A stretch of 64,000 bases of DNA from Gemmatimonadota bacterium (lineage in GTDB: Bacteria; Gemmatimonadota; Gemmatimonadetes; Gemmatimonadales; GWC2-71-9), in NCBI GenBank assembly GCA_009692185.1, contig SHZT01000001.1, forward strand, positions 205,247 through 269,246, in the 5' to 3' direction. The position numbers and the translations under genes were made by a program. Below the pieces are notes generated by a model. That model worked only from the letters and a program-made list of their open reading frames with translations, did no database searches and had not been told where the DNA came from. Shown here piece after piece: positions 1,123 through 48,735 of this stretch; position 1 is the stretch's first letter; every line of letters begins with the position of its first letter.

Positions 1123-2004
1123 GACGCCGGGGGCTCGCACACCGAGGCCGTCATCACCGACCGCGACGGCGCCGTCCTCTCCCGCGTTCGTGGTGGTCCG
1201 GGAGCGGTCACGCTGGACAACATCGCCCGCATTTCCAAGACCATCGCCGGGGTCGCGAAGGACGCCGCCCGGGAGGCCGGCATCAAGTTGCCCGCGGTTG
1301 CGCTGGTCGTCGGCGCCGCGGGCGCCGGGCGCGAGCAAGTGCGTGCAGGGTTGGAGCGTACGCTCAAGGCGCTCAAGGTGGCCCGCCGCACGCGCGTCAC
1401 GACGGACGGGGAGATCGCCCTGGCGGGCGCATTCCCGTCCGGACCGGGCATCGTCCTGATTTCGGGCACTGGTTCAATCGCTTACGGCCGTGATGCAACG
1501 GGAACGGTTCGCCGCGCGGGCGGGCTCGGGTGGCAACTGGGTGACGAGGGCGGCGGCTATGCAATGGGCCGCATGGCGCTGGCGGCCGTGGGCCGGGCGC
1601 TGGATGGCCGCGGCATTCGCACCGCGCTCAGCGAGGAACTGCTCCGAACCACCGGTGCCGCCGACCTCGATGCGCTGGTTGCGTGGGCGCAGACGGCAGA
1701 CCGCGCGGCCGTGGCGGCGCTCGCCCGCCCCGCGAGCGCCGCCGCGGAGCGGGGAGACCCGATCGCGCGGCAGTTGGTGAACGCCACAGCGGCCGACCTG
1801 GTTGCTCTCGTGGTGGGGCTGCTCCGGCAGTTTCCCTCGGGCGCCCCCGGCCAGCTCGCGCTCGCCGGGTCATTGCTCGGAGACGGCTCACCGGTCCGCG
1901 TGAGCCTGGTGTCGTCCATCAACCGGGCGGCACCGCATCTCCGGATTGAGACCAACCCGCCGGACCCCGCCCTCGGCGCCGCGAGGCTCGCGACCCAGGC
2001 ATGA
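1078..2004 (+). CDS. BadF/BadG/BcrA/BcrD-type ATPase, N-acetylglucosamine kinase-like
   Basis: GTG start overlaps the symporter stop. Motifs FLGIDAGGSHT, ISGTGSIAYG and GWQLGDEGGGYAMG are typical of the GlcNAc kinase family. The upstream part of ORF 76..2004 is an Arg/Pro-rich alternate frame. Confidence 0.75.
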   Translation: MTTKARARSPAFLGIDAGGSHTEAVITDRDGAVLSRVRGGPGAVTLDNIARISKTIAGVAKDAAREAGIKLPAVALVVGAAGAGREQVRAGLERTLKALKVARRTRVTTDGEIALAGAFPSGPGIVLISGTGSIAYGRDATGTVRRAGGLGWQLGDEGGGYAMGRMALAAVGRALDGRGIRTALSEELLRTTGAADLDALVAWAQTADRAAVAALARPASAAAERGDPIARQLVNATAADLVALVVGLLRQFPSGAPGQLALAGSLLGDGSPVRVSLVSSINRAAPHLRIETNPPDPALGAARLATQA

Positions 2005-22608: not shown

Positions 22609-22992
22609 ATGCAATGCCGTGCCCTGCTTGCACTTGTGACTGTCGCGTCCAGCCCGACTTGTCTGTCGCAGAACAAACTCGCTCATCCAGTACCGCTGGC
22701 GGTCATGGACGGCCGCGTCGTGTCGTTCGAGACCGGTGAGCCAATTCCCCACGTCGAGGTGTGCGTGTTTGGCAGCGACACGACTTGTGTGCGCAGTGAT
22801 GCCGCGGGCCGTTACCGCGCCCGCGTCACCCCCGGGACGGTCACGGTACGGTTTCGGACACCAGGGCTTCCTCTCGCGCTGGTGCGGAACATCGAGATCG
22901 CCGCGACGGCACCCGGGTCGGTCAGCTGCGCGATGACCGGCCGGATCGGCCTCTCTGAGGAAACGTCCTGCCTGCCGGTGCGCACCCAGTGA
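22609..22992 (+). CDS. Secreted carboxypeptidase-regulatory-like (CarboxypepD_reg) domain protein
   Basis: Signal peptide MQCRALLALVTVASS, then GRVVSFETGEPIPHVEVCVFGSDTTCVRSDAAGRYRARVTPGTVTVRF. Confidence 0.55.
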   Translation: MQCRALLALVTVASSPTCLSQNKLAHPVPLAVMDGRVVSFETGEPIPHVEVCVFGSDTTCVRSDAAGRYRARVTPGTVTVRFRTPGLPLALVRNIEIAATAPGSVSCAMTGRIGLSEETSCLPVRTQ

Positions 22993-38554: not shown

Positions 38555-38977
38555 CTAGTGAGGAAGGCGCGGCCGCAGGTACCCGTAGGCCCAGGTGCCG
38601 GCCAGCGCCGCGGTGATGGCAACCCACATGACGCCCACGCCTCCGCCGACCAGCGCGAACAGTGGACCGGGGCACGCGCCGGTCAGCGCCCAGCCGAGGC
38701 CGAACAGCGTGCCGCCTGCCCAGAACCGCGTGCGTTCGCCGGGTGGCGGCCCCAGCGTCCCGTCATCCAGGTCGCCGCACAAGACCGAGACCGAGTGGCG
38801 AACGAGTCGCCGGGTCACGCCGGCGACGAGCACCGCCGAGCCGAGCACGCCGTACATGTGAAAGGACTGGAAGCGAAACATTTCCTGGATCCGGAACCAG
38901 GAAATCACCTGGGTCTTGGTGAGCACAATGCCGAAGAGCGTGCCCAGGACGAAGTGCAACAGGAGCCCGCGCCTCAT
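38555..38977 (-). CDS. YeeE/YedE-family sulfur-compound transporter half
   Basis: GLGWALTGACPGP motif; 4 TM; ATGA-type overlap with the upstream half. Confidence 0.8.
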   Translation of the reverse strand: MRRGLLLHFVLGTLFGIVLTKTQVISWFRIQEMFRFQSFHMYGVLGSAVLVAGVTRRLVRHSVSVLCGDLDDGTLGPPPGERTRFWAGGTLFGLGWALTGACPGPLFALVGGGVGVMWVAITAALAGTWAYGYLRPRLPH

Positions 38978-39537
38978 GAGATCAGCGGGAGAACGAGGAA
39001 GGTGCCCAGCAGCCCGCCGGCGAAGAACCCGAGCACGGCGATGAATGATGCCGGCTGGAGACTGGCCATTCCGGTGACGCCATGTCCCGACGTACAGCCG
39101 CCCGCCCAGGCGGTCCCGAAGCCCACCAGGAACCCGCCGACGACCACGCTGATGATCCCCCGGAGCGTGAAGAGGCTCGCCCAGCTGAAGATCTCGCGGG
39201 GCACGAGGCCGGTGAAGTCATGAACGCCGAGCGTCGCGAGGCTGGCCTGTGTCGCCGGCGAGATCGCGATGTCTGTCCAGGCGAAGGAGCGGGTCGCGAT
39301 AAACCCGCCCAGCACGGTGCCGGCGGTGAGCGTCAGGTTCCAGAGCCCTGAGCGTTTCCAGTCGTATTGGAAGAACGTGAGGTTTCCGGGCACGGTTGCG
39401 GCGCACAGGTGCCGGAGCGCGGGCGACATGCCGAACCGGTGGTTCCCGAGCCAAAGGAGCGCGGGGACCATGAGGCCGATCAGCGGGCCACCGACGTACC
39501 ACGGCCAGGGAGCGCGGATGATTTCGGGAAGCGTCAT
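38974..39537 (-). CDS. YeeE/YedE-family sulfur-compound transporter half
   Basis: GFGTAWAGGCTSGHG motif; polytopic. Confidence 0.8.
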   Translation of the reverse strand: MTLPEIIRAPWPWYVGGPLIGLMVPALLWLGNHRFGMSPALRHLCAATVPGNLTFFQYDWKRSGLWNLTLTAGTVLGGFIATRSFAWTDIAISPATQASLATLGVHDFTGLVPREIFSWASLFTLRGIISVVVGGFLVGFGTAWAGGCTSGHGVTGMASLQPASFIAVLGFFAGGLLGTFLVLPLIS

Positions 39538-39570: not shown

Positions 39571-39975
39571 CTACGTCCGCTCGGTACCGCGCTGGACCAG
39601 GTCCCACCAGTTCCCGTACAGATCCTCGAACACCGCCACCGTCCCGTACTCGGCGGTCTTGGGCTCGCGCACGAAGTGGATTCCGGCGGCAACCATGGCG
39701 TTGTAGTCCCGCCAGAAGTCGTCAGTGGAGAGGAAAAGGAATACCCGCCCACCGGTCTGGTTGCCGATAGCCGCGGCCTGTTCGGGCGTAGACGCGCGGG
39801 CGAGGAGAATCGTGGTGCCGGTGGATCCCGGCGGCGCGACGACGACCCACCGCTTGTCCTGCTCAGGCTGGTAGGTGTCCTCGACCAGGGTGAACCGAAG
39901 TTTCTGGCAGAAGAACGCGATCGCCTCGTCGTAGTCCCTGACGACCAGCGCGACGTGGAAGATGGACTGCCGCAT
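39571..39975 (-). CDS. VOC-family (glyoxalase/bleomycin-resistance/dioxygenase) protein
   Basis: IFHVALVVRDYDEAIAFFCQKLRF...YGTVAVFEDLYGNWWDL; 134 aa. Confidence 0.8.
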   Translation of the reverse strand: MRQSIFHVALVVRDYDEAIAFFCQKLRFTLVEDTYQPEQDKRWVVVAPPGSTGTTILLARASTPEQAAAIGNQTGGRVFLFLSTDDFWRDYNAMVAAGIHFVREPKTAEYGTVAVFEDLYGNWWDLVQRGTERT

Positions 39976-40235: not shown

Positions 40236-40855
40236 TCACGGCGGGCCGCGTCTGCGGCCGAACGAAAGCATGCTGACCAGCTTGTCACGGAGCTTCATGG
40301 GGTGGTGCCGCAACAAGGCGGACAGGAGCCTCGGGAAAAGGCGCTTGAGATGCACGGTGTACATCTCCGACCCGCCTACCAACGCCTCCTCCTTCCCCCG
40401 CGCGACCGCCTGGAGCGTCTGCCGGGCACACTCTGCCGGGTCCATGCCCTGCTCCTGCACCGCCAGCATCTTCCCGTAGGTGCCGCCGCCGCCGGTGACG
40501 GCGCTGCTCAGGATCGGCGTGCGAACGAACCCGGGCACGATGAACGTGATCCGGATGCCGCCGGCGTGGACTTCCGCGCGCAGCGACTCGAAGAAGCCGT
40601 GCAACGCGTGTTTGGACGCAGCGTAGGACGAGAGCTGCGGTCCGCCGTACTTGCCGGAGAGGCTGCTGATGACGACAAAGCAGCCAGCGCCACGCTGCAG
40701 CATGGCCGGCAGGAGCGCCTTCGTCAGTACGACCGGGCCAAAGTAGTTCACGGCCATGAGGCGTTGATCGATGGCGACGGTCGTATCCACCACGCGGTTT
40801 CGCCGGCGGCGACAATGTCTGCTGCGGCAGTCCAGATGGAAGTGCGGTCGGACAT
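40236..40855 (-). pseudogene. Classical SDR (DHRS7-like) remnant lacking the Rossmann N-terminus, with a probable frameshift
   Basis: ORF 40236..40793 begins about where NNAG would be (VNYFG, SSLSG, YAASKHAL, PGFVRT are present). TGxxxGIG is absent. The short upstream frame MSDRTSIWTAAADIVAAGETA joins with a 1-nt shift, and a stop lies 4 codons upstream of its ATG. Confidence 0.55.
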
Positions 40856-40884
40856 GCTGGAAATCTAAGCGGAGCGAAGGGGCA

Positions 40885-40904
40885 GACGAGAACGAGGGAA
40901 CGAG
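40885..40904. repeat. Copy of the GAACGAG(G/C)G motif family
   Basis: GACGAGAACGAGGGAACGAG between the cysO stop and the SDR remnant. Confidence 0.5.
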
Positions 40905-40909
40905 CCCTC

Positions 40910-41191
40910 CTACCCCCCCGCCATGCTCGGCACAATGGCGATCTCGTCACCGGCCGCGAGGGGCGTGGCTTCGCGTTCCAGCTCGCGGATATCGCGGTCG
41001 TTCAGGTAGATGTTCACGAAGCTCCGCAGGCGACCGTCCTCCCCGTACAGGTGCCCCTTCACCCGCTGGTGGGTGCTGGTGAGCACCCCGAGGGCTTCGC
41101 CCACGGTCTTCGCTTCAACGCTCACCTCGACCAACCCCGCAACCGACGGCCGGAGCGCCGATGGAATCAGAATCGTTACGGACGTGCTCAC
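40910..41191 (-). CDS. cysO: MoaD/ThiS-family sulfur-carrier protein (CysO-like), C-terminal GG
   Basis: 93 aa beta-grasp-type protein ending ..AIVPSMAGG. Overlaps the JAMM gene by 4 nt and lies downstream of cysM. Confidence 0.75.
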   Translation of the reverse strand: MSTSVTILIPSALRPSVAGLVEVSVEAKTVGEALGVLTSTHQRVKGHLYGEDGRLRSFVNIYLNDRDIRELEREATPLAAGDEIAIVPSMAGG

Positions 41192-41625
41192 GAATCCCCC
41201 ACGTTCAATGTGTGTTCCTCAAACCCCATGCGATCATCGGCCAGCTGCCAGACGCGGACATCGCGGGCCACACCCAGCTCCACCGAAATGATCAGGTACC
41301 GGTACCAGGGCCACGCGTGTTCGCGGTCGTACTCCGATGGCTTCGCCGGGTGGTCCGGGTGCGAATGGTACGTGCCGAGAATGTCGAGGCCCTCCCGCCG
41401 GAGTTTCTTCTCGGTCGTGAGGAAATCCCCGGGGGCGATCTCGTAGCGATTCCTCGCCGATCCGGCCTCCACGCGCTGGTTGTGCACCGGCTCATGCCGC
41501 CGCACTACCGCCTCCCCGTTCTCGCCCGCCTCGCCGACCAGGAACCCGCACCCCTCGGCCGGATACGCCGCCTCGAGCGCGCCACGTATGGCCTCGAGCA
41601 CCGAGGGTTCAATGCGCAGGGTCAC
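41188..41625 (-). CDS. mec: JAMM/MPN+ metalloprotease (Mec-like)
   Basis: E..GFLVG, HSHPDHPAKPSEYD (HxHx7Sx2D). GTG start at 41625. Confidence 0.8.
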   Translation of the reverse strand: MTLRIEPSVLEAIRGALEAAYPAEGCGFLVGEAGENGEAVVRRHEPVHNQRVEAGSARNRYEIAPGDFLTTEKKLRREGLDILGTYHSHPDHPAKPSEYDREHAWPWYRYLIISVELGVARDVRVWQLADDRMGFEEHTLNVGDS

Positions 41626-42574
41626 GCAGCAACCGCCCGACTTCAGAGAGATACCGCTGGCCGCCATCCGGCCCGATGACGACCACGACCGGCTCCTCGC
41701 CCCGGGGACCGCGTGCGCCGCTCGCCAGCAACCGGCGCGCCGCCGACACGGCCGCGCCGGTAGACCACCCGGCATAGAGCCCTTCTTCCCGCGCCAGCTC
41801 CCGCACCCGCACCTCGGCGTCCTCGGTCGAGACATGCACCGTCGCGTCAATGAGCGCGGCGTCGTAGACCGGCGGAACAATCGCTGTCTCCATGTGCTTG
41901 AGGCCTTCCAGTCCGTGGAACGGGCCATCCGGCTCCACCGCGATCGTGTAGATGTCCCGGCGCCGCTCCTTGAGGTAGCGCCCGGTGCCGATCAGCGTAC
42001 CGCTCGTCCCGACGCCGGCCACGAGGTGCGTAACCGCCCCGCTCGTGGCCTGCCAGATCTCGGGACCGGTCGTCAGGTAGTGCGCGCGCGGATTCGCCGC
42101 ATGGGAATACTGATCCGCGTACCAGTACCGCTCCGGCCAGCGTTCGGCGAGTTCCCGCGCCCGGCGGATCGCGCCGTCACTCCCCTCCAGCGGGTCGGTC
42201 TCGACCAGCTCGGCGCCGTACGCGGCCAGCAACCCGCGCCGTTCGGGCGACGCGTTGGACGGTACGCAGACCGTGACGCCGATGCCCGCCGCGGCACCGA
42301 GCAATGCGTACCCGACGGCGGTGTTGCCGCTCGACGCGTCCAGCAGGCGGCGGCCGCGAAGGGCCCCCGAGCGGAGGCCCGCGCGCAGGATCTCCCGCGC
42401 CGCGCGGTCCTTCACCGAGCCGCTCGGGTTCGCCCATTCGGCCTTGAGCAGGAGACGCCCCTCCCCCGGCACGCTCCCCGACACCAGGGGCACGAGCGGC
42501 GTGTTCCCCACGAGCCCCCAGACCGCGGGTTCGTGGGTCGCCTCCGTCGAAATTGCCGATACGCCGACTGCCAT
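41609..42574 (-). CDS. cysM: PLP-dependent cysteine synthase, CysM-type
   Basis: GNTPLV, NPSGSVKDR (PLP Lys), SSGNTAVGYAL, GVGTSGTLIG. ATG 42574; the TTG at 42613 lies inside the terminator T-tract. Confidence 0.85.
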   Translation of the reverse strand: MAVGVSAISTEATHEPAVWGLVGNTPLVPLVSGSVPGEGRLLLKAEWANPSGSVKDRAAREILRAGLRSGALRGRRLLDASSGNTAVGYALLGAAAGIGVTVCVPSNASPERRGLLAAYGAELVETDPLEGSDGAIRRARELAERWPERYWYADQYSHAANPRAHYLTTGPEIWQATSGAVTHLVAGVGTSGTLIGTGRYLKERRRDIYTIAVEPDGPFHGLEGLKHMETAIVPPVYDAALIDATVHVSTEDAEVRVRELAREEGLYAGWSTGAAVSAARRLLASGARGPRGEEPVVVVIGPDGGQRYLSEVGRLLRDPAH

Positions 42575-42604: not shown

Positions 42605-42644
42605 GACAAACAAAAAGGCCGCGAACCTGAAAGGATTCGCGACC
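42605..42644 (-). terminator. Rho-independent terminator/attenuator in the cysM leader
   Basis: Minus strand: GGTCGCGAA-TCCTTTCAGG-TTCGCGGCC followed by TTTTTGTTTGT, ending about 30 nt before the cysM ATG. Confidence 0.65.
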
Positions 42645-42671
42645 GTGTGACTGCTTCGGAACGAGCTAGAC

Positions 42672-42758
42672 CTAAGTCATGCCGCCGGCAGTGGCCGCGA
42701 ATTCCCCTCTGCGACAACAGAGAGGCTTCGGACAGCGGCAACACCGTGTGATCGACAT
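42672..42758 (-). promoter_or_regulatory. Candidate Cys-rich leader peptide (28 codons) of cysM-mec-cysO
   Basis: MSITRCCRCPKPLCCRRGEFAATAGGMT. It has 5 Cys codons, 4 of them the rare TGT. A TTGACC-18nt-TAGGTT promoter-like pair places the predicted TSS at about the ATG (leaderless). Confidence 0.45.
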
Positions 42759-42820
42759 GATGCGAACCTAAGGGGCGACACCTTGTCAGGTCAAGATGGG
42801 CCCATTACGTTGCTCGAACG

Positions 42821-42910
42821 ATGATCAACCGCCCGAACTCCGCCATGTGTTGTACCACGTGTCCCAGCTCTCGCGAGCGTCCGGGGAACACGGGGGGTTG
42901 TCTGTCATAG
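42821..42910 (+). promoter_or_regulatory. Candidate Cys-rich leader peptide (29 codons) of cysG-sir
   Basis: MINRPNSAMCCTTCPSSRERPGNTGGCLS. It has 4 Cys codons, all TGT. A TTGTCA-17nt-TACGTT promoter-like pair at 42783-42811 ends 9 nt before the ATG. Confidence 0.4.
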
Positions 42911-42944
42911 CGCTCTAGCAGCACTTCAACCCGTCTGATTCCGT

Positions 42945-42979
42945 CCGGCCGCTCAACCCGAGCGGCCCTTTTCGTTTTA
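42945..42979 (+). terminator. Rho-independent terminator/attenuator in the cysG-sir leader
   Basis: CCGGCCGCTC-AACCC-GAGCGGCC followed by CTTTTCGTTTT, 30 nt upstream of the RBS (GGAGAG) and ATG 43011. Confidence 0.65.
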
Positions 42980-43010: not shown

Positions 43011-44408
43011 ATGAGTGCGTACTACCCCGTATACCTGGACCTTCGCGGCCGCCGAGTGGTGGTCGTCGGCGGCGGAACCGTCGCCCAGCACAAGATCCGC
43101 GAGCTGCTGAAAGCCGGCGCCGCGGTCACCGTCGTGACCCCGGCCTCGGCTCCGGGGCTGGAAGACCTGGCCGACGAGGGAAGCGTCGAGATCCTGTGGC
43201 GTCCCTACCGAACCGGGGACCTCGAAGGGGCGTTCCTCGCCATCGCCGCCACGGATGACCGCTCGGTGAATCACGACGTAAGGGCCGAGGCGGAGCGTCT
43301 CCACATTCCCGTGAACGCGGTGGACGACCTGCCGAACTGTACGTTCATCGCCCCGGCGGTTCATCGTCAGGGCGACCTGACCATCACGGTCTCGACGTCG
43401 GGCCACGCGCCCGCGCTCGCCGCGCGGCTCCGGGATCGCATCGCCTCATGGATCGGGCCGGAGTACGACGCGCTGGTGGCCCTGCTCGGAACGCTGAGGG
43501 CCGAGATCGCCGCGCGGGAGCCGGACTTCAAGACCCGCGCCCGCTTGTGGTACCGGATCGTGGACTCGGACATTCTCGCGCTGGTCCGCCGCGGCGACCG
43601 CGAGGCCGCCGAAACGCTGGCCCGGCAGGTCATTTCCGGTAGCATACCGGCGGGCAAGGTCTACCTCGTGGGCGCGGGACCGGGCGACCCCGGGCTCATC
43701 ACCGTGCGTGGCCGCGACGTGCTCGGCCAGGCAGACGTGGTCGTATATGACCGCCTGGTGCACCCCGCCCTGCTCGAACTCATCCCGCCAAAGGCGGAGC
43801 GCCTGTTTGTCGGCAAAGGCCCGCAAGGCGAATCCACCAGCCAGGAGCAGATCAACGACTTGCTCGTGTCCCTGGGCCTTGAGGGCCGGCGCGTTGTGCG
43901 GCTCAAGGGCGGCGATCCGTTCGTCTTCGGCCGTGGCGCGGAGGAGTGCGAGGCGCTGGCGGCCGCAGGCGTGGCGTTCGAGGTCGTACCGGGCATCACG
44001 TCGGCCGTTGCCGTGCCGGGCGCCGCGCTCATTCCGCTCACCCACCGCCGCTGGAGTTCAGGGTTCGCCGTGGTCGCGGGCCACGAGTGCGACGGCGGCT
44101 CCGACCTGGACTGGTCCGCGCTGGCCCAGATGCCCACGCTCGTGGTTCTCATGGGCCTTCGCACGCTGGGCGACGTGGTGTCCAACCTGCGGGCCGCGGG
44201 CAAGGACGCCACGACGCCGGCCGCGGTCATCGCGGAGGGGACACTCCCCACACAGCGTGTCGTGGTTGGGACGCTGGCGACGATCGCGGAGCGCGTGAAG
44301 GCAGAAGGACTCGAATCCCCCGCCACGCTGGTCATTGGCGACGTCGTCCGGGTACCCGAACAATTGTCCGGCAGTCTCACGCCGGTGGAGGCAGGGGTAG
44401 CTGCATGA
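43011..44408 (+). CDS. cysG: Siroheme synthase (precorrin-2 dehydrogenase/ferrochelatase fused to uroporphyrinogen-III C-methyltransferase)
   Basis: N-terminal YPVYLDLRGRRVVVVGGGTVA Rossmann motif. C-terminal VYLVGAGPGDPGLITVRG...VVRLKGGDPFVFGRG methyltransferase motifs. Confidence 0.9.
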   Translation: MSAYYPVYLDLRGRRVVVVGGGTVAQHKIRELLKAGAAVTVVTPASAPGLEDLADEGSVEILWRPYRTGDLEGAFLAIAATDDRSVNHDVRAEAERLHIPVNAVDDLPNCTFIAPAVHRQGDLTITVSTSGHAPALAARLRDRIASWIGPEYDALVALLGTLRAEIAAREPDFKTRARLWYRIVDSDILALVRRGDREAAETLARQVISGSIPAGKVYLVGAGPGDPGLITVRGRDVLGQADVVVYDRLVHPALLELIPPKAERLFVGKGPQGESTSQEQINDLLVSLGLEGRRVVRLKGGDPFVFGRGAEECEALAAAGVAFEVVPGITSAVAVPGAALIPLTHRRWSSGFAVVAGHECDGGSDLDWSALAQMPTLVVLMGLRTLGDVVSNLRAAGKDATTPAAVIAEGTLPTQRVVVGTLATIAERVKAEGLESPATLVIGDVVRVPEQLSGSLTPVEAGVAA

Positions 44409-46189
44409 CGACCGAGCTTACACCCGACGTTCCCGGGATTATCCCGTACTTCCCCGAGGAGGTGGACGAGTTCGACACGCTCATTGCGCGGGTTCGGGTC
44501 AAAGACCTCGACGACAAGGAGTTCACCGGGCATCGCCTGCTCCGCGGCGTATACGGCCAGCGCCAGCCCGACCGGCAGATGGTCCGTATCAAGATTCCGT
44601 TGGGGCGCCTCGACGCCCGCCAGATGGAAGTGCTCGCGGATGTGATCGAGCAGTTTGCGCCCCTGGGGCACGGCCATTTCACGACGCGCGAGAACATGCA
44701 GCTGCACCACGTTCCGCTCGACGGGACCCCGACCCTGATGCGGATGCTGGGCAAGGTCGGGATCACCACCCGCGAAGCCTGTGGCAACACGGTCCGCAAC
44801 GTGACCGGCTGCGCCCTCGCCGGAGTCTGTCCCGACGAGCAGTTCGACGCCTCGCCCTACGCGGCGGCGTATGCCCGCTACCTCGTCCGGCGGGATTTCG
44901 CCATGAAAATGCCGCGCAAGGTCAAAACGGCCTTCGTCGCCTGCCGGGAAGACCATGCGGTGATACGCATTCACGACATCGGGTTTGTGGGAAGCGTCCG
45001 GCAAATCAGCGGCCAGCCCGTGCGGGGGTTCCGGATCGTGGTCGGCGGCGGCACGTCCATCGAGCCCGTCCTGGCGCCTGAGCTCTACGAGTTCGTCACG
45101 GCGGACGACGGCGCATACCTCAGGGTGTCCGAGGCCGTGCTCCGCGTGTTCAACCGGTCCGACGAACTCCGGAAGAACCGCATGAAGGCGCGGATCAAGA
45201 TCCTCATCAAGCGGATCGGCATTGACGCCTTCCGAGAACTCGTGGAGAAGGAACTCACGGAACCATGGGCGAAACTGCCGATTGACGTGCCGGCCTTGAG
45301 CGCGGGACTCCCGCGCGAGGGGAAGATCCCCGCGGCGGCACCGTTCGAACGGCCGCCTGAGACGAATGCGGCATTCGCCGAGTGGCTCCGGACCAACGCA
45401 GTCCCGCAGAAACAGGCGGGCTACCACGGGGCATTCGTCACCATTCCGACGGGAGACGTGACCCCCGCCCAGTGCCGAGGGCTCGCAGCCATCGCGCGCG
45501 CCCACGGGACCGGGGAGATTCGCGTAACCTACGACCAGAACGTGGTGATTCGCTGGGTGCCGGGAGGCCGACTGCACGGGGTCTGGTCAGACCTGGCCGC
45601 CATCGGGCTTGGCGCGCCCGGAGCCCAGCGGGTGACGGACGTGGTGTCCTGTCCCGGGACCGACTCCTGCAAGCTCGGCATCACGTCATCCATGGGACTC
45701 AACCGGGCCGTGCGGTCCATGCTGGCAAGCCGGCCGGACCTGACCCGCGATCCGCTGATTGACCGGATGCACATCCGGATCAGCGGGTGCCCCAACGGTT
45801 GCGGGCAGCACCATATCGGCGACATCGGGTTTCACGGCGCGGCGGCGAAGGGCGACCAGAAGATGTACGTGCCCGCCTACGAGGCGTTCATCGGCGGGAT
45901 GTACCAGGGGAGCCTGGTGCGCTATGGCATCCGGCCCAAGGGCAAGATCCCGGCGAAGAGCCTGCCGGACGCCATAGCGGAGATGCTGACGTGGTACCGG
46001 GACCAGCGGCATGCCGAGGAGCAGTTCAGCGCATTCGTGGACCGCGTGGGGACGGCGCCCTTCGAGGCTATCGTCTCGAAATTCGGCGATATCCCGACCT
46101 TCGACGCAAAGGCGCCCGCGTTCTACCAGGACTGGGAGCGGACCGCGCTCTACAAGGTGGAGCGGGGTGAAGGAGAGTGTGCGATGTAG
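44405..46189 (+). CDS. sir: Sulfite reductase hemoprotein, ferredoxin-dependent type (NirA/Sir family)
   Basis: ATGA overlap with cysG. Two NIR_SIR repeats. Siroheme/4Fe-4S Cys motifs CPGTDSCKLG and SGCPNGCGQHH. Confidence 0.9.
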   Translation: MTTELTPDVPGIIPYFPEEVDEFDTLIARVRVKDLDDKEFTGHRLLRGVYGQRQPDRQMVRIKIPLGRLDARQMEVLADVIEQFAPLGHGHFTTRENMQLHHVPLDGTPTLMRMLGKVGITTREACGNTVRNVTGCALAGVCPDEQFDASPYAAAYARYLVRRDFAMKMPRKVKTAFVACREDHAVIRIHDIGFVGSVRQISGQPVRGFRIVVGGGTSIEPVLAPELYEFVTADDGAYLRVSEAVLRVFNRSDELRKNRMKARIKILIKRIGIDAFRELVEKELTEPWAKLPIDVPALSAGLPREGKIPAAAPFERPPETNAAFAEWLRTNAVPQKQAGYHGAFVTIPTGDVTPAQCRGLAAIARAHGTGEIRVTYDQNVVIRWVPGGRLHGVWSDLAAIGLGAPGAQRVTDVVSCPGTDSCKLGITSSMGLNRAVRSMLASRPDLTRDPLIDRMHIRISGCPNGCGQHHIGDIGFHGAAAKGDQKMYVPAYEAFIGGMYQGSLVRYGIRPKGKIPAKSLPDAIAEMLTWYRDQRHAEEQFSAFVDRVGTAPFEAIVSKFGDIPTFDAKAPAFYQDWERTALYKVERGEGECAM

Positions 46190-46224: not shown

Positions 46225-48735
46225 ATGAGCGGCCGGTCTCAACCAACACCTGACATACACAAGTTCGGCGGCGCTTCGCTCGCCGATGCCGCCGCCATTG
46301 GCGGAGCGCTCCGGCTGGTGCGCGAAATGCGCGGCACGCCGGTCATCGTGGTATCCGCCCTCGCGGGCGTCACCGACGGGCTCCTCGGCGCCATCTCCGC
46401 GGCGACACTCGGTGACGGGCCCTCCACGCGGACATTGGCCAACACGCTTCGCGCACGATACCGCCGGGCGGCGACCGCGTTGCTGCGGAAGGAGCGGCGT
46501 GAGGTGCTCGAATCCGTACGCGAGTCTTTCGATGAACTCGATCGCCTGCTCGTCTCCATCGGCTCGCTCAAGGAAGCGAACGCCCGCACGCAGGACTACG
46601 TCCTCGCCCGCGGCGAACGGCTGGCGGCCACGCTGTTCGCCGCGGGCCTGCGGCAGGCCGGGCGCCAGGCGCGCTATATAGACGCGCTCGACGTGATCCG
46701 GACGAACGGACCGTTCGGCAACGCCACGCCCAACCTCAAGGCGACGGACCGGAGCGCCCGCAAGGCGCTCCTCCCGCTCCTCCGGCGCGGCATTATCCCC
46801 GTGGTTCCCGGATTCCTCGGCGCGGGTCCTGATGGCGAACTCACGACGCTCGGCCGGGGCGGCGCGGACCTCACGGCCACGCTCCTGGCCCGCTCCCTCG
46901 GGTCGCCCGAAGTCACGCTGTGGAAGGACGTGGCCGGAATCCTCACGGCTGACCCGCGCACCGTTCCCGGCGCGCGCGTCATCCCGCAATTGCACCTTCG
47001 CGAGGCGGCGGAGCTCGCGTACTACGGGGCCCGGGTGCTGCACCCGCGCGCCCTGATTCCGCTCACCGGGAAACGGACGGCGATCCGTGTTCGCCCGTTT
47101 GCCCAGCCCGCCGCGCTGGGCACCGAGGTCTCCCGGCGGCAAGGCCTGGCGGGCTTTCCTGTCAAGGCACTGTCCGCGATCTCCGGGCAGGCGCTGGTCA
47201 CCGTGGCCGGGAACGGCATGCTGGGTGTGCCCGGCATCGCCGCGCGAACGTTCGAGGCGGTACACCGCGAGGGGATCTCGGTCACGTTCATCACGCAGGC
47301 GTCGTCCGAGCACTCCATTTCGTTCGCGATCCCCGAGGCGAGCGCCCATGCCGCACGCGCCAGCCTCGCGCGCGAGTTCCGGCGGGAAATCGCCCGCCGG
47401 GAGATTGACGGCGTCGAGATCCGGGGCGACGTCGGGATCCTCGCGGTCGTGGGGATGGGCATCGCCGGCAAGCCGGGGATCACCGCCCGCGTGTTCGCGG
47501 CGCTGGCCGAGGCCGGCATCAATGTCCTCGCCACGGCGCACGGCTCATCGGATCTCAACCTGTCGGTCGTGCTCGACGCCGCAGATGCGCCCAGGGCCCA
47601 GCGGCTGGTGCACGCGGCATTCCAGCTGGACAAGCTCGGTGGCGGGGCCCTCTCCCGCCGCCGGGGCCTCGACGTTGTGCTCCTGGGATTCGGCCAGGTA
47701 GGCCGGGCGCTGGCGCCCCTCATCGCCGCGCAATCGCGGACGCCCGTGAGCGCCCGCGTCGTGGGCGTGATTGACCGGAGTGGCTTCGTGTTCGACCCGG
47801 CGGGGTTCTCCCTCGCACGACTGCGGACGCTGGCCGGGGCCAAGGGAGGAGGCGCGTCGCTGGTGCGGGTCGCGGGCGGGCACGCCGGCAGTGCCACCGA
47901 CGCGATCCAGTTCCTCTCGACGCACGCGCTTCGCGAGCCGGTTCTCGTGGACGTCACCGCGGGCGAAACCGGAACGGTGCTCGAGGCCGCCCTGCGGGCC
48001 GGGTTCGACCTGGTGCTCGCCAACAAGCGCCCGCTCGCCGGGTCTCAGCGCGCCTTCGACCGGCTCCGCGCCACCGCCGTCGAACACGGCCGGCGCCTGC
48101 TACACGAAGCGACCGTGGGCGCTGGCCTGCCCATCATCGACACGTTCCGGAAACTCGTCGAGGCGGGCGACCGCGTCTTGCGGATCGAGGCGTGCCCCTC
48201 GGGGACGCTCGGCTTCCTGTTTGGCGAATTGGGCCGCGGCCGTCCTTTCTCGGCTGCGCTGCGGGACGCGATGGACAAGGGCTACACCGAGCCCGACCCA
48301 CGGGACGACCTGTCGGGGCTCGACGTCGCGCGGAAGGCGCTGATCCTCGGCCGCCTGCTTGGCTTCCGCGGGGAACTCAAGGGCGTGGCCGTGGAATCGC
48401 TGGTCACTCCCGCGACCCGGCGCCTCACGACGGCCGAGTTCCTGCGACACCTCGAGCGTGATGACGCCCTGTGGGCGCGCCGCATTGCCGCCGCGGCCGC
48501 CCGCGGGCGGGTGCTTCGCTACCGGGCAGTTGCCACCTCGCGGCGGGTCCAGGTGGGGTTGAGGCTGGTGGATCCGTCGAGTCCCACGGCGTCACTCAAC
48601 GGCACGGACAACCAGTTCGTGTTCACCACGCTCCGCTATCGCGACAATCCGCTGGTGATCACCGGCCCGGGCGCCGGCCCGGCCGTCACCGCGGGCGGCG
48701 TCCTGAACGACATCCTCAGGCTGGGCGGCGCGTGA
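46225..48735 (+). CDS. thrA: Bifunctional aspartokinase / homoserine dehydrogenase
   Basis: KFGGASL and VVSALAGVTD kinase motifs, an ACT region, then a C-terminal homoserine dehydrogenase (VVLLGFGQVGRAL, EATVGAGLPII). Confidence 0.9.
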   Translation: MSGRSQPTPDIHKFGGASLADAAAIGGALRLVREMRGTPVIVVSALAGVTDGLLGAISAATLGDGPSTRTLANTLRARYRRAATALLRKERREVLESVRESFDELDRLLVSIGSLKEANARTQDYVLARGERLAATLFAAGLRQAGRQARYIDALDVIRTNGPFGNATPNLKATDRSARKALLPLLRRGIIPVVPGFLGAGPDGELTTLGRGGADLTATLLARSLGSPEVTLWKDVAGILTADPRTVPGARVIPQLHLREAAELAYYGARVLHPRALIPLTGKRTAIRVRPFAQPAALGTEVSRRQGLAGFPVKALSAISGQALVTVAGNGMLGVPGIAARTFEAVHREGISVTFITQASSEHSISFAIPEASAHAARASLAREFRREIARREIDGVEIRGDVGILAVVGMGIAGKPGITARVFAALAEAGINVLATAHGSSDLNLSVVLDAADAPRAQRLVHAAFQLDKLGGGALSRRRGLDVVLLGFGQVGRALAPLIAAQSRTPVSARVVGVIDRSGFVFDPAGFSLARLRTLAGAKGGGASLVRVAGGHAGSATDAIQFLSTHALREPVLVDVTAGETGTVLEAALRAGFDLVLANKRPLAGSQRAFDRLRATAVEHGRRLLHEATVGAGLPIIDTFRKLVEAGDRVLRIEACPSGTLGFLFGELGRGRPFSAALRDAMDKGYTEPDPRDDLSGLDVARKALILGRLLGFRGELKGVAVESLVTPATRRLTTAEFLRHLERDDALWARRIAAAAARGRVLRYRAVATSRRVQVGLRLVDPSSPTASLNGTDNQFVFTTLRYRDNPLVITGPGAGPAVTAGGVLNDILRLGGA

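Follow-up and report, generated by a model that had tools for sequence, protein, structure and literature searches.

Two predicted cysteine-sensing leader attenuators between the divergent cysM-mec-cysO and cysG-sir operons of a Gemmatimonadota bacterium

The classical transcription attenuators of Escherichia coli and Salmonella (trpL, hisL, leuL, thrL, ilvL and pheL) lie directly before a biosynthetic operon and combine an upstream open reading frame (uORF), rich in codons for the end product and in rare synonyms, with four RNA segments, of which 1 and 2 pair as the anti-antiterminator (1:2), 2 and 3 as the antiterminator (2:3), and 3 and 4 as the terminator (3:4). Here we describe two leaders which share this logic. 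They are located between the divergent genes cysM and cysG in a stretch of 64,000 nucleotides (nt) from a soil Gemmatimonadota genome (GenBank assembly GCA_009692185.1, contig SHZT01000001.1, positions 205,247 to 269,246 of the forward strand), called the window below. They differ from the classical attenuators in several respects: the amino acid predicted to be sensed is cysteine, the uORFs have no Shine-Dalgarno sequence and are predicted to be leaderless, and the uORF stop codon lies 3' of segment 2, inside the antiterminator hairpin, whereas the classical stop precedes it. Moreover, the host belongs to Gemmatimonadota, and there is no sequence or Rfam relationship to the classical leaders.

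The initial annotation of this DNA knew of no characterised Cys attenuator of this kind. However, uORF attenuators keyed to Cys codons have already been published (10.1101/834739; PMC8632094; PMC4007540; PMC1262725). In mycobacteria, polycysteine leaderless short open reading frames (sORFs), such as Ms5788A and Rv2334A, were experimentally shown to attenuate cysteine operons and were named the 'Cys ribulon' (Canestrari et al. 2020, 10.1101/834739). In the case that was dissected the mechanism is translational: the downstream ribosome-binding site (RBS) is masked by pairing with the polyCys tract, and there is no terminator. According to the same authors, attenuation by a Cys uORF was new to the literature, and control at other loci might act on transcription (10.1101/834739). 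The leaders described here resemble the mycobacterial sORFs in being unannotated and predicted to be leaderless, in having consecutive Cys codons before cysteine-metabolism operons, and in that several independent loci per genome would answer one signal. They differ, on the other hand, in having a terminator and an antiterminator, in belonging to another phylum and in showing no evident sequence similarity. Pairing between a polyCys tract and a Shine-Dalgarno sequence, as in the dissected mycobacterial case, was not found in them, the hairpins being U-tract terminators with the RBSs of cysM and cysG outside.

Two further systems have been proposed to control the gene of the Cys-tRNA synthetase. 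One is uORFC-8-2 upstream of cysS in Rhodobacterales, for which a uORF with Cys codons and a terminator was predicted (Brewer et al. 2021, PMC8632094). The other is the 10-amino-acid Cys-Cys leader of Deinococcus deserti cysS, with a transcription start site mapped at the AUG, which makes it leaderless (de Groot et al. 2014, PMC4007540). Predicted transcription attenuation, tandem Cys codons and a 3' U-run terminator are common to these and to the present leaders, all of which are predictions; the taxa are different, however, and here the genes concerned serve cysteine biosynthesis and sulfite reduction. Nor do our leaders belong to uORFC-8-2, which is found before cysS in Alphaproteobacteria and has tandem Cys codons that are mainly UGC; the window is from Gemmatimonadota, its leaders precede cysM and cysG, and UGU dominates in the leaders studied here (55 vs 20). 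In Actinobacteria, comparative genomics revealed short ORFs with Cys runs before cysteine-metabolism operons, without terminators or conserved hairpins, and Rho was suggested to act there (Seliverstov et al. 2005, PMC1262725); the full conserved set of terminator and antiterminator found here is a clear difference. In the literature we found neither a description of leader-peptide attenuation in Gemmatimonadota nor a terminator-type Cys attenuator on cysteine-biosynthesis genes. Cys codons, a leaderless uORF and the terminator/antiterminator pair are each precedented, but no precedent exists for their combination, for these target operons or for this phylum.

The region had been read in the initial annotation as attenuation of the trp/his type keyed to the charging of Cys-tRNA. 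Conservation, the absence of Rfam matches, folding and the tracking of the terminator by segment 2 support this reading in silico. We consider it likely that the region holds two independent, divergent, ribosome-mediated transcription attenuators which sense Cys-tRNA(Cys), with better support for the cysM leader than for its cysG counterpart.

Cys-rich uORFs and terminators in the window and in related loci

The 436-base-pair (bp) region between cysM and cysG contains two Cys-rich uORFs and two hairpin/U-tract terminators (Table 1). As had been claimed, its GC content is lower than that of its surroundings (0.585-0.625 against about 0.69-0.76 in the flanks). Cysteine is specified by codons 6, 7, 9, 14 and 15 of the cysM leader (5/28; four TGT and one TGC) and by codons 10, 11, 14 and 27 of the cysG leader (4/29, all TGT), with consecutive pairs at codons 6-7 and 14-15 in the former and 10-11 in the latter, while in the genes of the window Cys accounts for 0.88% of residues. 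Among the 185 ATG-started sORFs of 15-45 amino acids in the window only three have at least four Cys, and two of them are these leaders. The third, at 22614-22739, was rejected, being out of frame within a 148-amino-acid ORF and lacking a terminator. Both uORFs are at the coordinates first proposed for them, and TGT makes up eight of their nine Cys codons. It is indeed the rare synonym here, used for 16 of the 111 Cys codons (14%) in gene-like ORFs of the window (P about 1.5e-6).

A terminator scan of the region returned exactly two sites, against 0.5 expected from shuffles: an 11-bp stem on the minus strand (42644-42617, then TTTTTGTTTG) and an 8-bp stem on the plus strand (42947-42967, then CTTTTCGTTT). 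Both of the clean terminators previously noticed about 30 nt before cysM and cysG were thereby recovered. When a stricter definition (a perfect stem of at least 7 bp, at least 6 U in 8) was applied to both strands of the 64 kb, three terminator-like sites were found, two of which are the leader terminators. None of the three is at a gene 3' end, and the canonical intrinsic terminator signal seems to be reserved for regulatory leaders in this genome. The start codons and Shine-Dalgarno sequences of cysM and cysG are about 30 nt 3' of the hairpins and outside them.

Table 1. Positions of leader elements, genes and operons in the window, followed by the Anaerolineae regions listed by locus
Feature	Position	Strand	Description
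cysM leader uORF	42672-42758	-	28 codons and UAG; MSITRCCRCPKPLCCRRGEFAATAGGMT
cysM leader segment 1 (anti-antiterminator 5' half)	42704-42740	-	UGCCGC...GAA and hairpin CCUCUCUG-UUGU-CGCAGAGGG
cysM leader segment 2 (antiterminator 5' strand)	42692-42706	-	GGAAUUCGCGGCC, in codons 18-23; near copy of terminator 3' arm
cysM leader intrinsic terminator	42607-42644	-	hairpin -17.3 kcal/mol; segment 3 GGUCGCGAAUC (42644-42634), segment 4 GGUUCGCGGCC (42627-42617), then UUUUUGUUUG
cysM leader -35-like TTGACC	42789-42794	-	from sequence and conservation
cysM leader -10-like TAGGTT	42765-42770	-	18 nt past -35, 6 nt to uORF ATG
cysG leader uORF	42821-42910	+	29 codons and UAG; MINRPNSAMCCTTCPSSRERPGNTGGCLS
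cysG leader segments 1 and 2	42867-42884	+	small hairpin GCUC-UCGC-GAGC as 1:2; segment 2 GAGCGUCCGG at 42875-42884
cysG leader intrinsic terminator	42945-42978	+	hairpin -17.2 kcal/mol; segment 3 CCGGCCGCUC (42945-42954), segment 4 GAGCGGCC (42960-42967), then CUUUUCGUUUU
cysG leader -35-like TTGTCA	42783-42788	+	from sequence
cysG leader -10-like TACGTT	42806-42811	+	17 nt past -35, 9 nt to uORF ATG
cysM-mec-cysO operon	40910-42574	-	NCBIfam and Pfam
cysM (CysM-type cysteine synthase)	42574-41609	-	
mec/JAMM protein	about 41616-41188	-	
cysO, ThiS/MoaD-like	41191-40910	-	
cysG-sir operon	43011-46189	+	downstream of cysG leader
cysG, full-length siroheme synthase	43011-44408	+	
sir, NirA/Sir-family sulfite reductase	44405-46189	+	ATGA overlap with cysG stop, 44405-44408
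Anaerolineae polyCys region before cysM, L033	3706-4000		
Anaerolineae polyCys region before cysM, L051	3760-4000		
Anaerolineae polyCys region before cysM, L056	3760-4000		
Anaerolineae polyCys region before cysM, L060	3649-4000		
Anaerolineae polyCys region before cysM, L076	940-1199		
Anaerolineae polyCys region before cysM, L079	3720-4000		

Related loci were gathered with a CysM anchor in reference genomes, by exact look-up of close CysM homologues, and with a CysG anchor in metagenomes. Both leaders recur upstream of orthologous operons in related metagenomic loci, giving 19 leaders in total, all with in-frame Cys runs, so that the expected conservation of the uORFs and of their Cys enrichment was confirmed. 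In L081 (CysM 86% identical) and L082 (78%) the divergent layout is alike and both leaders are present; the cysM leaders begin MPRVPASRFSCCCPDGLCCCRDV and MTIHRAPVCCCCPEPLCCCRGV, respectively, and the cysG leaders read MINRPSSAMCCTACPSSCERPGNTGVCP and MINQPNFSMCCCMCPSSFERPGEIGACSR. Cys-run uORFs homologous to the cysM leader were found in 11 related loci, those beyond L081 and L082 being L083, L166, L084/L085, L167, L168, L169, L002, L052 and L054, and more distant leaders of sir/cysG operons in L003 (minus strand), L102, L108, L110, L115, L120 and L127. What stays constant is an ATG-started ORF of about 22-38 codons, in-frame Cys clusters and a 3' GC hairpin with a U-tract, the other residues being variable. 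The terminator of the cysM leader is kept in L081, L082, L083 and L166, that of the cysG leader in L081 and L082, and the ribosome-free full-length minimum free energy (MFE) structure contains the terminator in all 19 leaders. The CysG-anchored metagenome scan gave 80 loci which are only 57-64% identical; most have no leader directly upstream because cysG is operon-internal there, and in L102, L108, L110, L115, L120 and L127 the leader is found at the operon start, before sir.

The two leaders had been presented as a divergent pair. The distance between their start codons is 62 bp in the window, about 126 bp in L082 and about 448 bp in L081, and each leader also occurs alone. Because of this variable spacing and solitary occurrence we regard them as two independent modules joined by gene order, the pairing itself being incidental. 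In L081, the closest relative, a 73-nt tRNA-like gene is located between both leaders (1336-1408, minus strand; tRNA-Ser(GCT) by ARAGORN, 48.7 bits with the Rfam tRNA model); for a Ser tRNA this length is unusually small, and the window has no such gene. Two kinds of candidates were rejected. The apparent Cys sORFs of L004, L005 and L006 lie within a rhodanese gene in another reading frame, and antisense 'hits' before cysM are artefacts of its conserved 5' coding region.

The preference for TGT extends to the wider set, with a TGT:TGC ratio of 55:20 across 15 leaders vs 34:170 in flanking genes (P = 3e-15). This fits tuning of an attenuator by a slowly decoded codon, and the Salmonella leu leader is likewise built on rare Leu codons. 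The stop codon is biased as well. UAG ends the uORF in 14 of the 19 leaders vs 17 of 74 flanking genes (P = 7e-5), including both leaders of the window (42672-42674, minus strand; 42908-42910, plus strand), and a CTAG motif occurs -8 to +24 nt from the uORF stop in 13 of the 19 (in the window at about 42666-42669 and 42917-42920). In the window as a whole CTAG is about 15-fold under-represented (13 observed, about 195 expected). UAG/CTAG could be a back-up or other-frame stop, or could bring about slow RF1-dependent release that keeps the ribosome inside the antiterminator.

The promoter-like hexamers and spacings reported in the initial annotation are present. In cysM leaders, TTGAC(C/A/G) with equal spacing is kept in L081, L082, L083, L084, L166, L167 and L169, and TAnnnT followed by 6-7 nt to the ATG in L081, L082, L084, L166, L167 and L169; the cysG leaders of L081 and L082 have TACCTT, then 9 nt to the ATG. 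Most leaders can be described as TTGAC(C/A/G), 17-18 nt, TAnnnT, 6-10 nt and ATG, with no Shine-Dalgarno sequence. Because the short distance between the -10-like element and the ATG is conserved, the mRNAs of both window leaders are probably leaderless or nearly so (a 5' untranslated region of 0-4 nt is predicted for the cysG leader), and the leaderless reading proposed earlier is supported to this extent. Possible short 5' leaders are seen in L083 (12 nt to the ATG) and L168 (28 nt, with a possible GGGA). At 42783-42794 the two -35-like hexamers abut and make up a 12-bp near-palindrome, TTGTCAGGTCAA. This arrangement is absent from L081 and L082, in which the promoters are far apart, and the near-palindrome is probably incidental rather than a shared operator.

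Alternative pairings and their variation between leaders

The earlier proposal included a duplicated terminator arm, and the pairings it listed are present. In the cysM leader AAUUCGCGGCC pairs with GGUCGCGAAU over 10 bp, of which one is G.U, and GGCCGCGAA is repeated exactly at 42617-42625 and 42693-42701. In the cysG leader GAGCGUCCGG pairs with CCGGCCGCUC at 9 of 10 positions, with one U.C mismatch. Segment 1 of the cysM leader spans Cys codons 7-15 and pairs with segment 2; an equivalent hairpin exists in L081 and L082 with changed stem bases. The energies of 1:2, 2:3 and 3:4 in this leader are -23.3, -21.5 and -17.3 kcal/mol. The 2:3 pairing (RNAduplex) amounts to -17.7 kcal/mol for the core and -21.5 kcal/mol when extended, a value equalled by none of 200 shuffles. 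Without a ribosome, the full-length MFE structure of the cysM leader consists of 1:2 and the terminator. When a ribosome is masked at Cys codon 9, 14 or 15, the MFE structure changes to the antiterminator, and when it is masked at the uORF stop, the terminator returns.

For the cysG leader the corresponding energies are -5.1 (the 1:2 hairpin), -18.0 and -17.2 kcal/mol. The sequence of its segments 1 and 2 is invariant in L081 and L082, and an analogue of its segment 2 covaries with the terminator in L003 and in leaders of the L102 type. Both window leaders form 2:3 as long as segment 4 is not yet transcribed. The uORF stop follows segment 2 and precedes segment 3 in all leaders; a ribosome terminating there, within the antiterminator hairpin, therefore occupies the very structure whose formation has to be prevented.

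About ten types of terminator sequence can be distinguished (for example GGUCGCGAA, CCCACCUCCGAU, CCCGCCUCCG, GCCGGCCGCGGC, CCGGCCGCUC and GGGCCCGCUUCCC). As MAFFT alignments across subfamilies misalign segments 1 and 2, they were excluded from pair counts, and alignment-free duplex energies of own versus cross pairs were used with a permutation test instead. In the resulting matrix the uORF segment of each type complements its own terminator better than those of other leaders. The sum over the ten types is -183.0 kcal/mol for own pairs vs -148.1 +/- 7.8 kcal/mol for permuted ones, and none of 20,000 permutations was as good. The best partner of the terminator 5' arm was found at uORF nt 54-87 in 14 of 15 folded leaders (in the exception, L022, at nt 103-113). 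In the 19-leader set it lies at nt 49-87, before the stop and 0-19 nt (mostly 4-13) past the last clustered Cys codon. In the D-type subfamily, 1:2, 3:4 and 2:3 are paired at 87.5%, 97.5% and 100%, respectively, vs 37-65% with slid partners.

Proposed mechanism and competing explanations

From the elements, their conservation, the alternative pairings and the co-variation between subfamilies, all established in silico, we infer the transcription start, uORF translation, ribosome stalling and regulatory outcome as follows. Transcripts would start at the uORF AUG or a few nt from it and would be translated leaderless. Of the four segments, segment 1 would carry or adjoin the codons for Cys, segment 2, a near copy of the terminator 3' arm, falls in the last third of the uORF, and segments 3 and 4 would make up the terminator. 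When cysteine is plentiful, the ribosome would traverse segment 2 and reach UAG, or 1:2 would re-form behind it; segment 3 would then be free, 3:4 would form, and transcription would stop some 30 nt short of cysM or cysG. Under cysteine shortage, the ribosome would stall on the clustered, mostly UGU, Cys codons and cover segment 1, leaving segment 2 exposed 4-13 nt past the last clustered Cys codon. The 2:3 hairpin would form first and block the terminator, and cysM-mec-cysO and cysG-sir would be transcribed. The genes downstream of both leaders make or depend on cysteine, as is to be expected of operons under such control.

A number of observations weigh against this scheme. In the cysG leader, the antiterminator is the MFE structure only before segment 4 exists, and the terminator stays the full-length MFE at every masked position. 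The alternation of structures claimed for both leaders is therefore found in the cysM leader, which switches on masked Cys codons 9, 14 and 15, whereas the cysG antiterminator appears only co-transcriptionally and not at full length. Because it is never the full-length MFE, the cysG switch must be kinetic; the E. coli trp attenuator switch is likewise kinetic. The 1:2 pairing of the cysG leader is also weak (its hairpin being the one of -5.1 kcal/mol, with outer pairing possible), and the advantage of its own terminator over others is modest (-16.3 vs a mean of -14.0, rank 2 of 10). Ribosome-free truncated transcripts of both window leaders already favour 2:3, so that termination in replete cells depends on the assumed tight coupling of transcription and translation. 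Within subfamilies, the stems are nearly invariant and there are zero double-sided compensatory changes, which makes the D-type pair counts uninformative for covariation. The evidence for covariation comes solely from comparisons between subfamilies whose nucleotide sequences cannot be aligned, and phylogenetically the leaders are not independent of one another. Thus, of the compensatory stem changes that one would look for, the tracking of its own terminator by segment 2 is seen between subfamilies, but no double-sided change is seen within them. The duplex energies of L022, L102 and L127 are no better than those of shuffles. Finally, a stricter promoter consensus scan of the region gave zero sites, the hexamers being weak matches which gain weight solely because they are conserved in relatives, and we found no documented leaderless translation in Gemmatimonadota in the literature.

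A rival mechanism is one in which the Cys-rich uORFs sense cysteine but the output is translational, by RBS unmasking as for Ms5788A in M. smegmatis, or Rho-dependent, with the hairpins and U-tracts being constitutive or leaky. The sole experimentally dissected Cys uORF works translationally (10.1101/834739), Rho has been suggested for the terminator-less Cys leaders of Actinobacteria (PMC1262725), and the cysG antiterminator, never the full-length MFE, agrees with this possibility as well. Yet the cysM and cysG starts with their Shine-Dalgarno sequences lie beyond the hairpins, canonical terminators are otherwise nearly absent from the window, a hairpin followed by a U-tract is found in each of the 19 leaders, and co-variation of segment 2 with the terminator would be purposeless in a purely translational switch. 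We thus find this explanation unlikely. It is even harder to believe that the leaders are RNA switches which bind a metabolite or a protein, either riboswitch-like or bound by a sulfur regulator, and that the Cys codons are incidental. The conserved peptide stretches ERPG and AEVGTS do coincide with conserved RNA stems, so that the nucleotide sequence is clearly under constraint, and to this can be added the unexplained conservation of CTAG near the stop. However, Rfam 15 detected no family at the gathering threshold in the whole window or in nine related loci, only tRNAs and noise, and at E<=10 the best local scores over the region were 11-16 bits vs gathering scores of 42-100. A known riboswitch, named at the outset as the alternative to exclude, is excluded in this sense. 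No extended conserved aptamer-like fold was seen either. The stems differ entirely between subfamilies, the constants being the ATG-started ORF, in-frame Cys clusters just 5' of segments 1 and 2 and the four-segment logic, and Cys density is far above the background.

The uORFs might, alternatively, encode functional Cys-rich micro-proteins that bind metals or take part in redox reactions, or precursors similar to ribosomally synthesised and post-translationally modified peptides. Small Cys-rich proteins are known, and the Cys residues here are in places spaced in a CxxC-like manner (CCRCP, CCTTCP). Nevertheless, we regard this as very improbable, since the subfamilies have little in common in peptide length or in residues other than Cys, the adjoining genes include no modification or transport genes, and the rare-codon bias argues against selection for efficient expression. 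An exact-match look-up of five leader peptides in a collection of 15 billion proteins found none of them. A 3' terminator would give a monocistronic mRNA, but it leaves the duplicated arm without explanation. Chance remains to be considered, as GC-rich DNA is rich in spurious ORFs and stems and some duplex energies are within the shuffle range. Against it stand the architecture conserved in 19 leaders with terminator-matched pairing in ten of ten types, the excess of dense-Cys sORFs upstream of cysM (10/78 vs 17/685, P = 1.4e-4; see below), and the fact that two of three strict terminators and two of three sORFs with at least four Cys in the 64 kb fall in this region. A coincidence of GC-rich hairpins and random small ORFs is, as judged from the comparative data, effectively refuted. 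Attenuation of transcription by ribosomes stalled at Cys codons is, in our opinion, the explanation to be preferred.

Operons, occurrence in other phyla and implications

The identities originally assigned to the flanking genes (cysM-like, JAMM/Mec, ThiS/CysO, CysG and NirA/Sir) were confirmed with NCBIfam and Pfam. The CysM protein is 100% identical to one from an uncultured Gemmatimonadota known as a metagenome-assembled genome, which means that the host is not an actinobacterium. The cysM-mec-cysO trio, which is also present in L081, L082, L083 and L166, constitutes the sulfur-carrier-protein route to cysteine. Either transcription unit may be longer than the operons in Table 1. On the plus strand, thrA, coding for a bifunctional aspartokinase/homoserine dehydrogenase (46225-48735), follows sir after a 35-nt gap, and a thrC-like gene abuts thrA with no gap. 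The Cys attenuator may extend to thrA-thrC, or the thrC-like enzyme may serve a sulfur-related role. On the minus strand, a 221-amino-acid ORF without assigned identity (40285-40950), a glyoxalase/VOC protein (39571-39975) and an ORF with a YeeE/TsuA-type sulfur-transport domain (38974-39537) are found 3' of cysO, and these three may share its Cys-regulated transcription unit.

Cys-dense leaders are not limited to Gemmatimonadota. Among CysM-anchored loci from many phyla, 10 of 78 have a dense-Cys sORF at most 330 nt upstream. Relative to random regions, of which 17 of 685 contain one, the odds ratio is 5.8 (P = 1.4e-4). Anaerolineae (Chloroflexota) contribute five of the ten loci and Acidobacteriota two, and none of them matches Rfam. 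The uORFs of Anaerolineae are preceded by a Shine-Dalgarno sequence and end in ..CCCLKRG.., after which come nested hairpins with two successive U-tracts; MFKAICCCCCHKMGR, MNYTCACCCLRRGR and ..YCCCCCLWTGA are examples. They appear to be a separate, undescribed family of Cys leaders. By contrast, two Gemmatimonadota loci with CysM 69-70% identical, L001 and L170, have no Cys leader and carry an Rrf2-family (CymR/IscR-like) gene directly upstream of cysM (at about 2341-2523 and at 2467-2916, respectively). In a search for cultured carriers of the leaders, L170 was the sole contig longer than 1 Mb. It looks as if control of cysM had been swapped between an RNA-based leader and an Rrf2 protein regulator, and regulator swapping has been described for attenuators (PMC2965389).

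We lean, if only slightly, towards the view that the leaders of the window are the first classical attenuators on operons of cysteine biosynthesis and sulfite reduction, and that they are members of a so far undescribed set of Cys-tRNA-sensing leaders that crosses phyla and includes Gemmatimonadota, Anaerolineae (Chloroflexota) and some Acidobacteriota. Leaderless translation, wobble-decoded UGU and a UAG/CTAG stop context inside the antiterminator would then be tuned features, and a 'Cys regulon' run by ribosomes would be a widespread alternative to CymR/Rrf2- or CysB-type regulators in soil bacteria. The practical impact is modest, and the mechanism is a well-understood one which these leaders do not challenge. 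Still, cysteine has long been a conspicuous gap in leader-peptide attenuation, and its sole tested case, that of mycobacteria, is translational. The bias of UGU over UGC, together with that towards UAG, offers a testable hypothesis on how the sensitivity of an attenuator is tuned, and a polyCys uORF followed by a terminator is a simple annotation signature for sulfur-assimilation regulons in uncultured soil bacteria. If our interpretation is true, classical attenuation reaches cysteine biosynthesis, operates in Gemmatimonadota and can be combined with leaderless translation.

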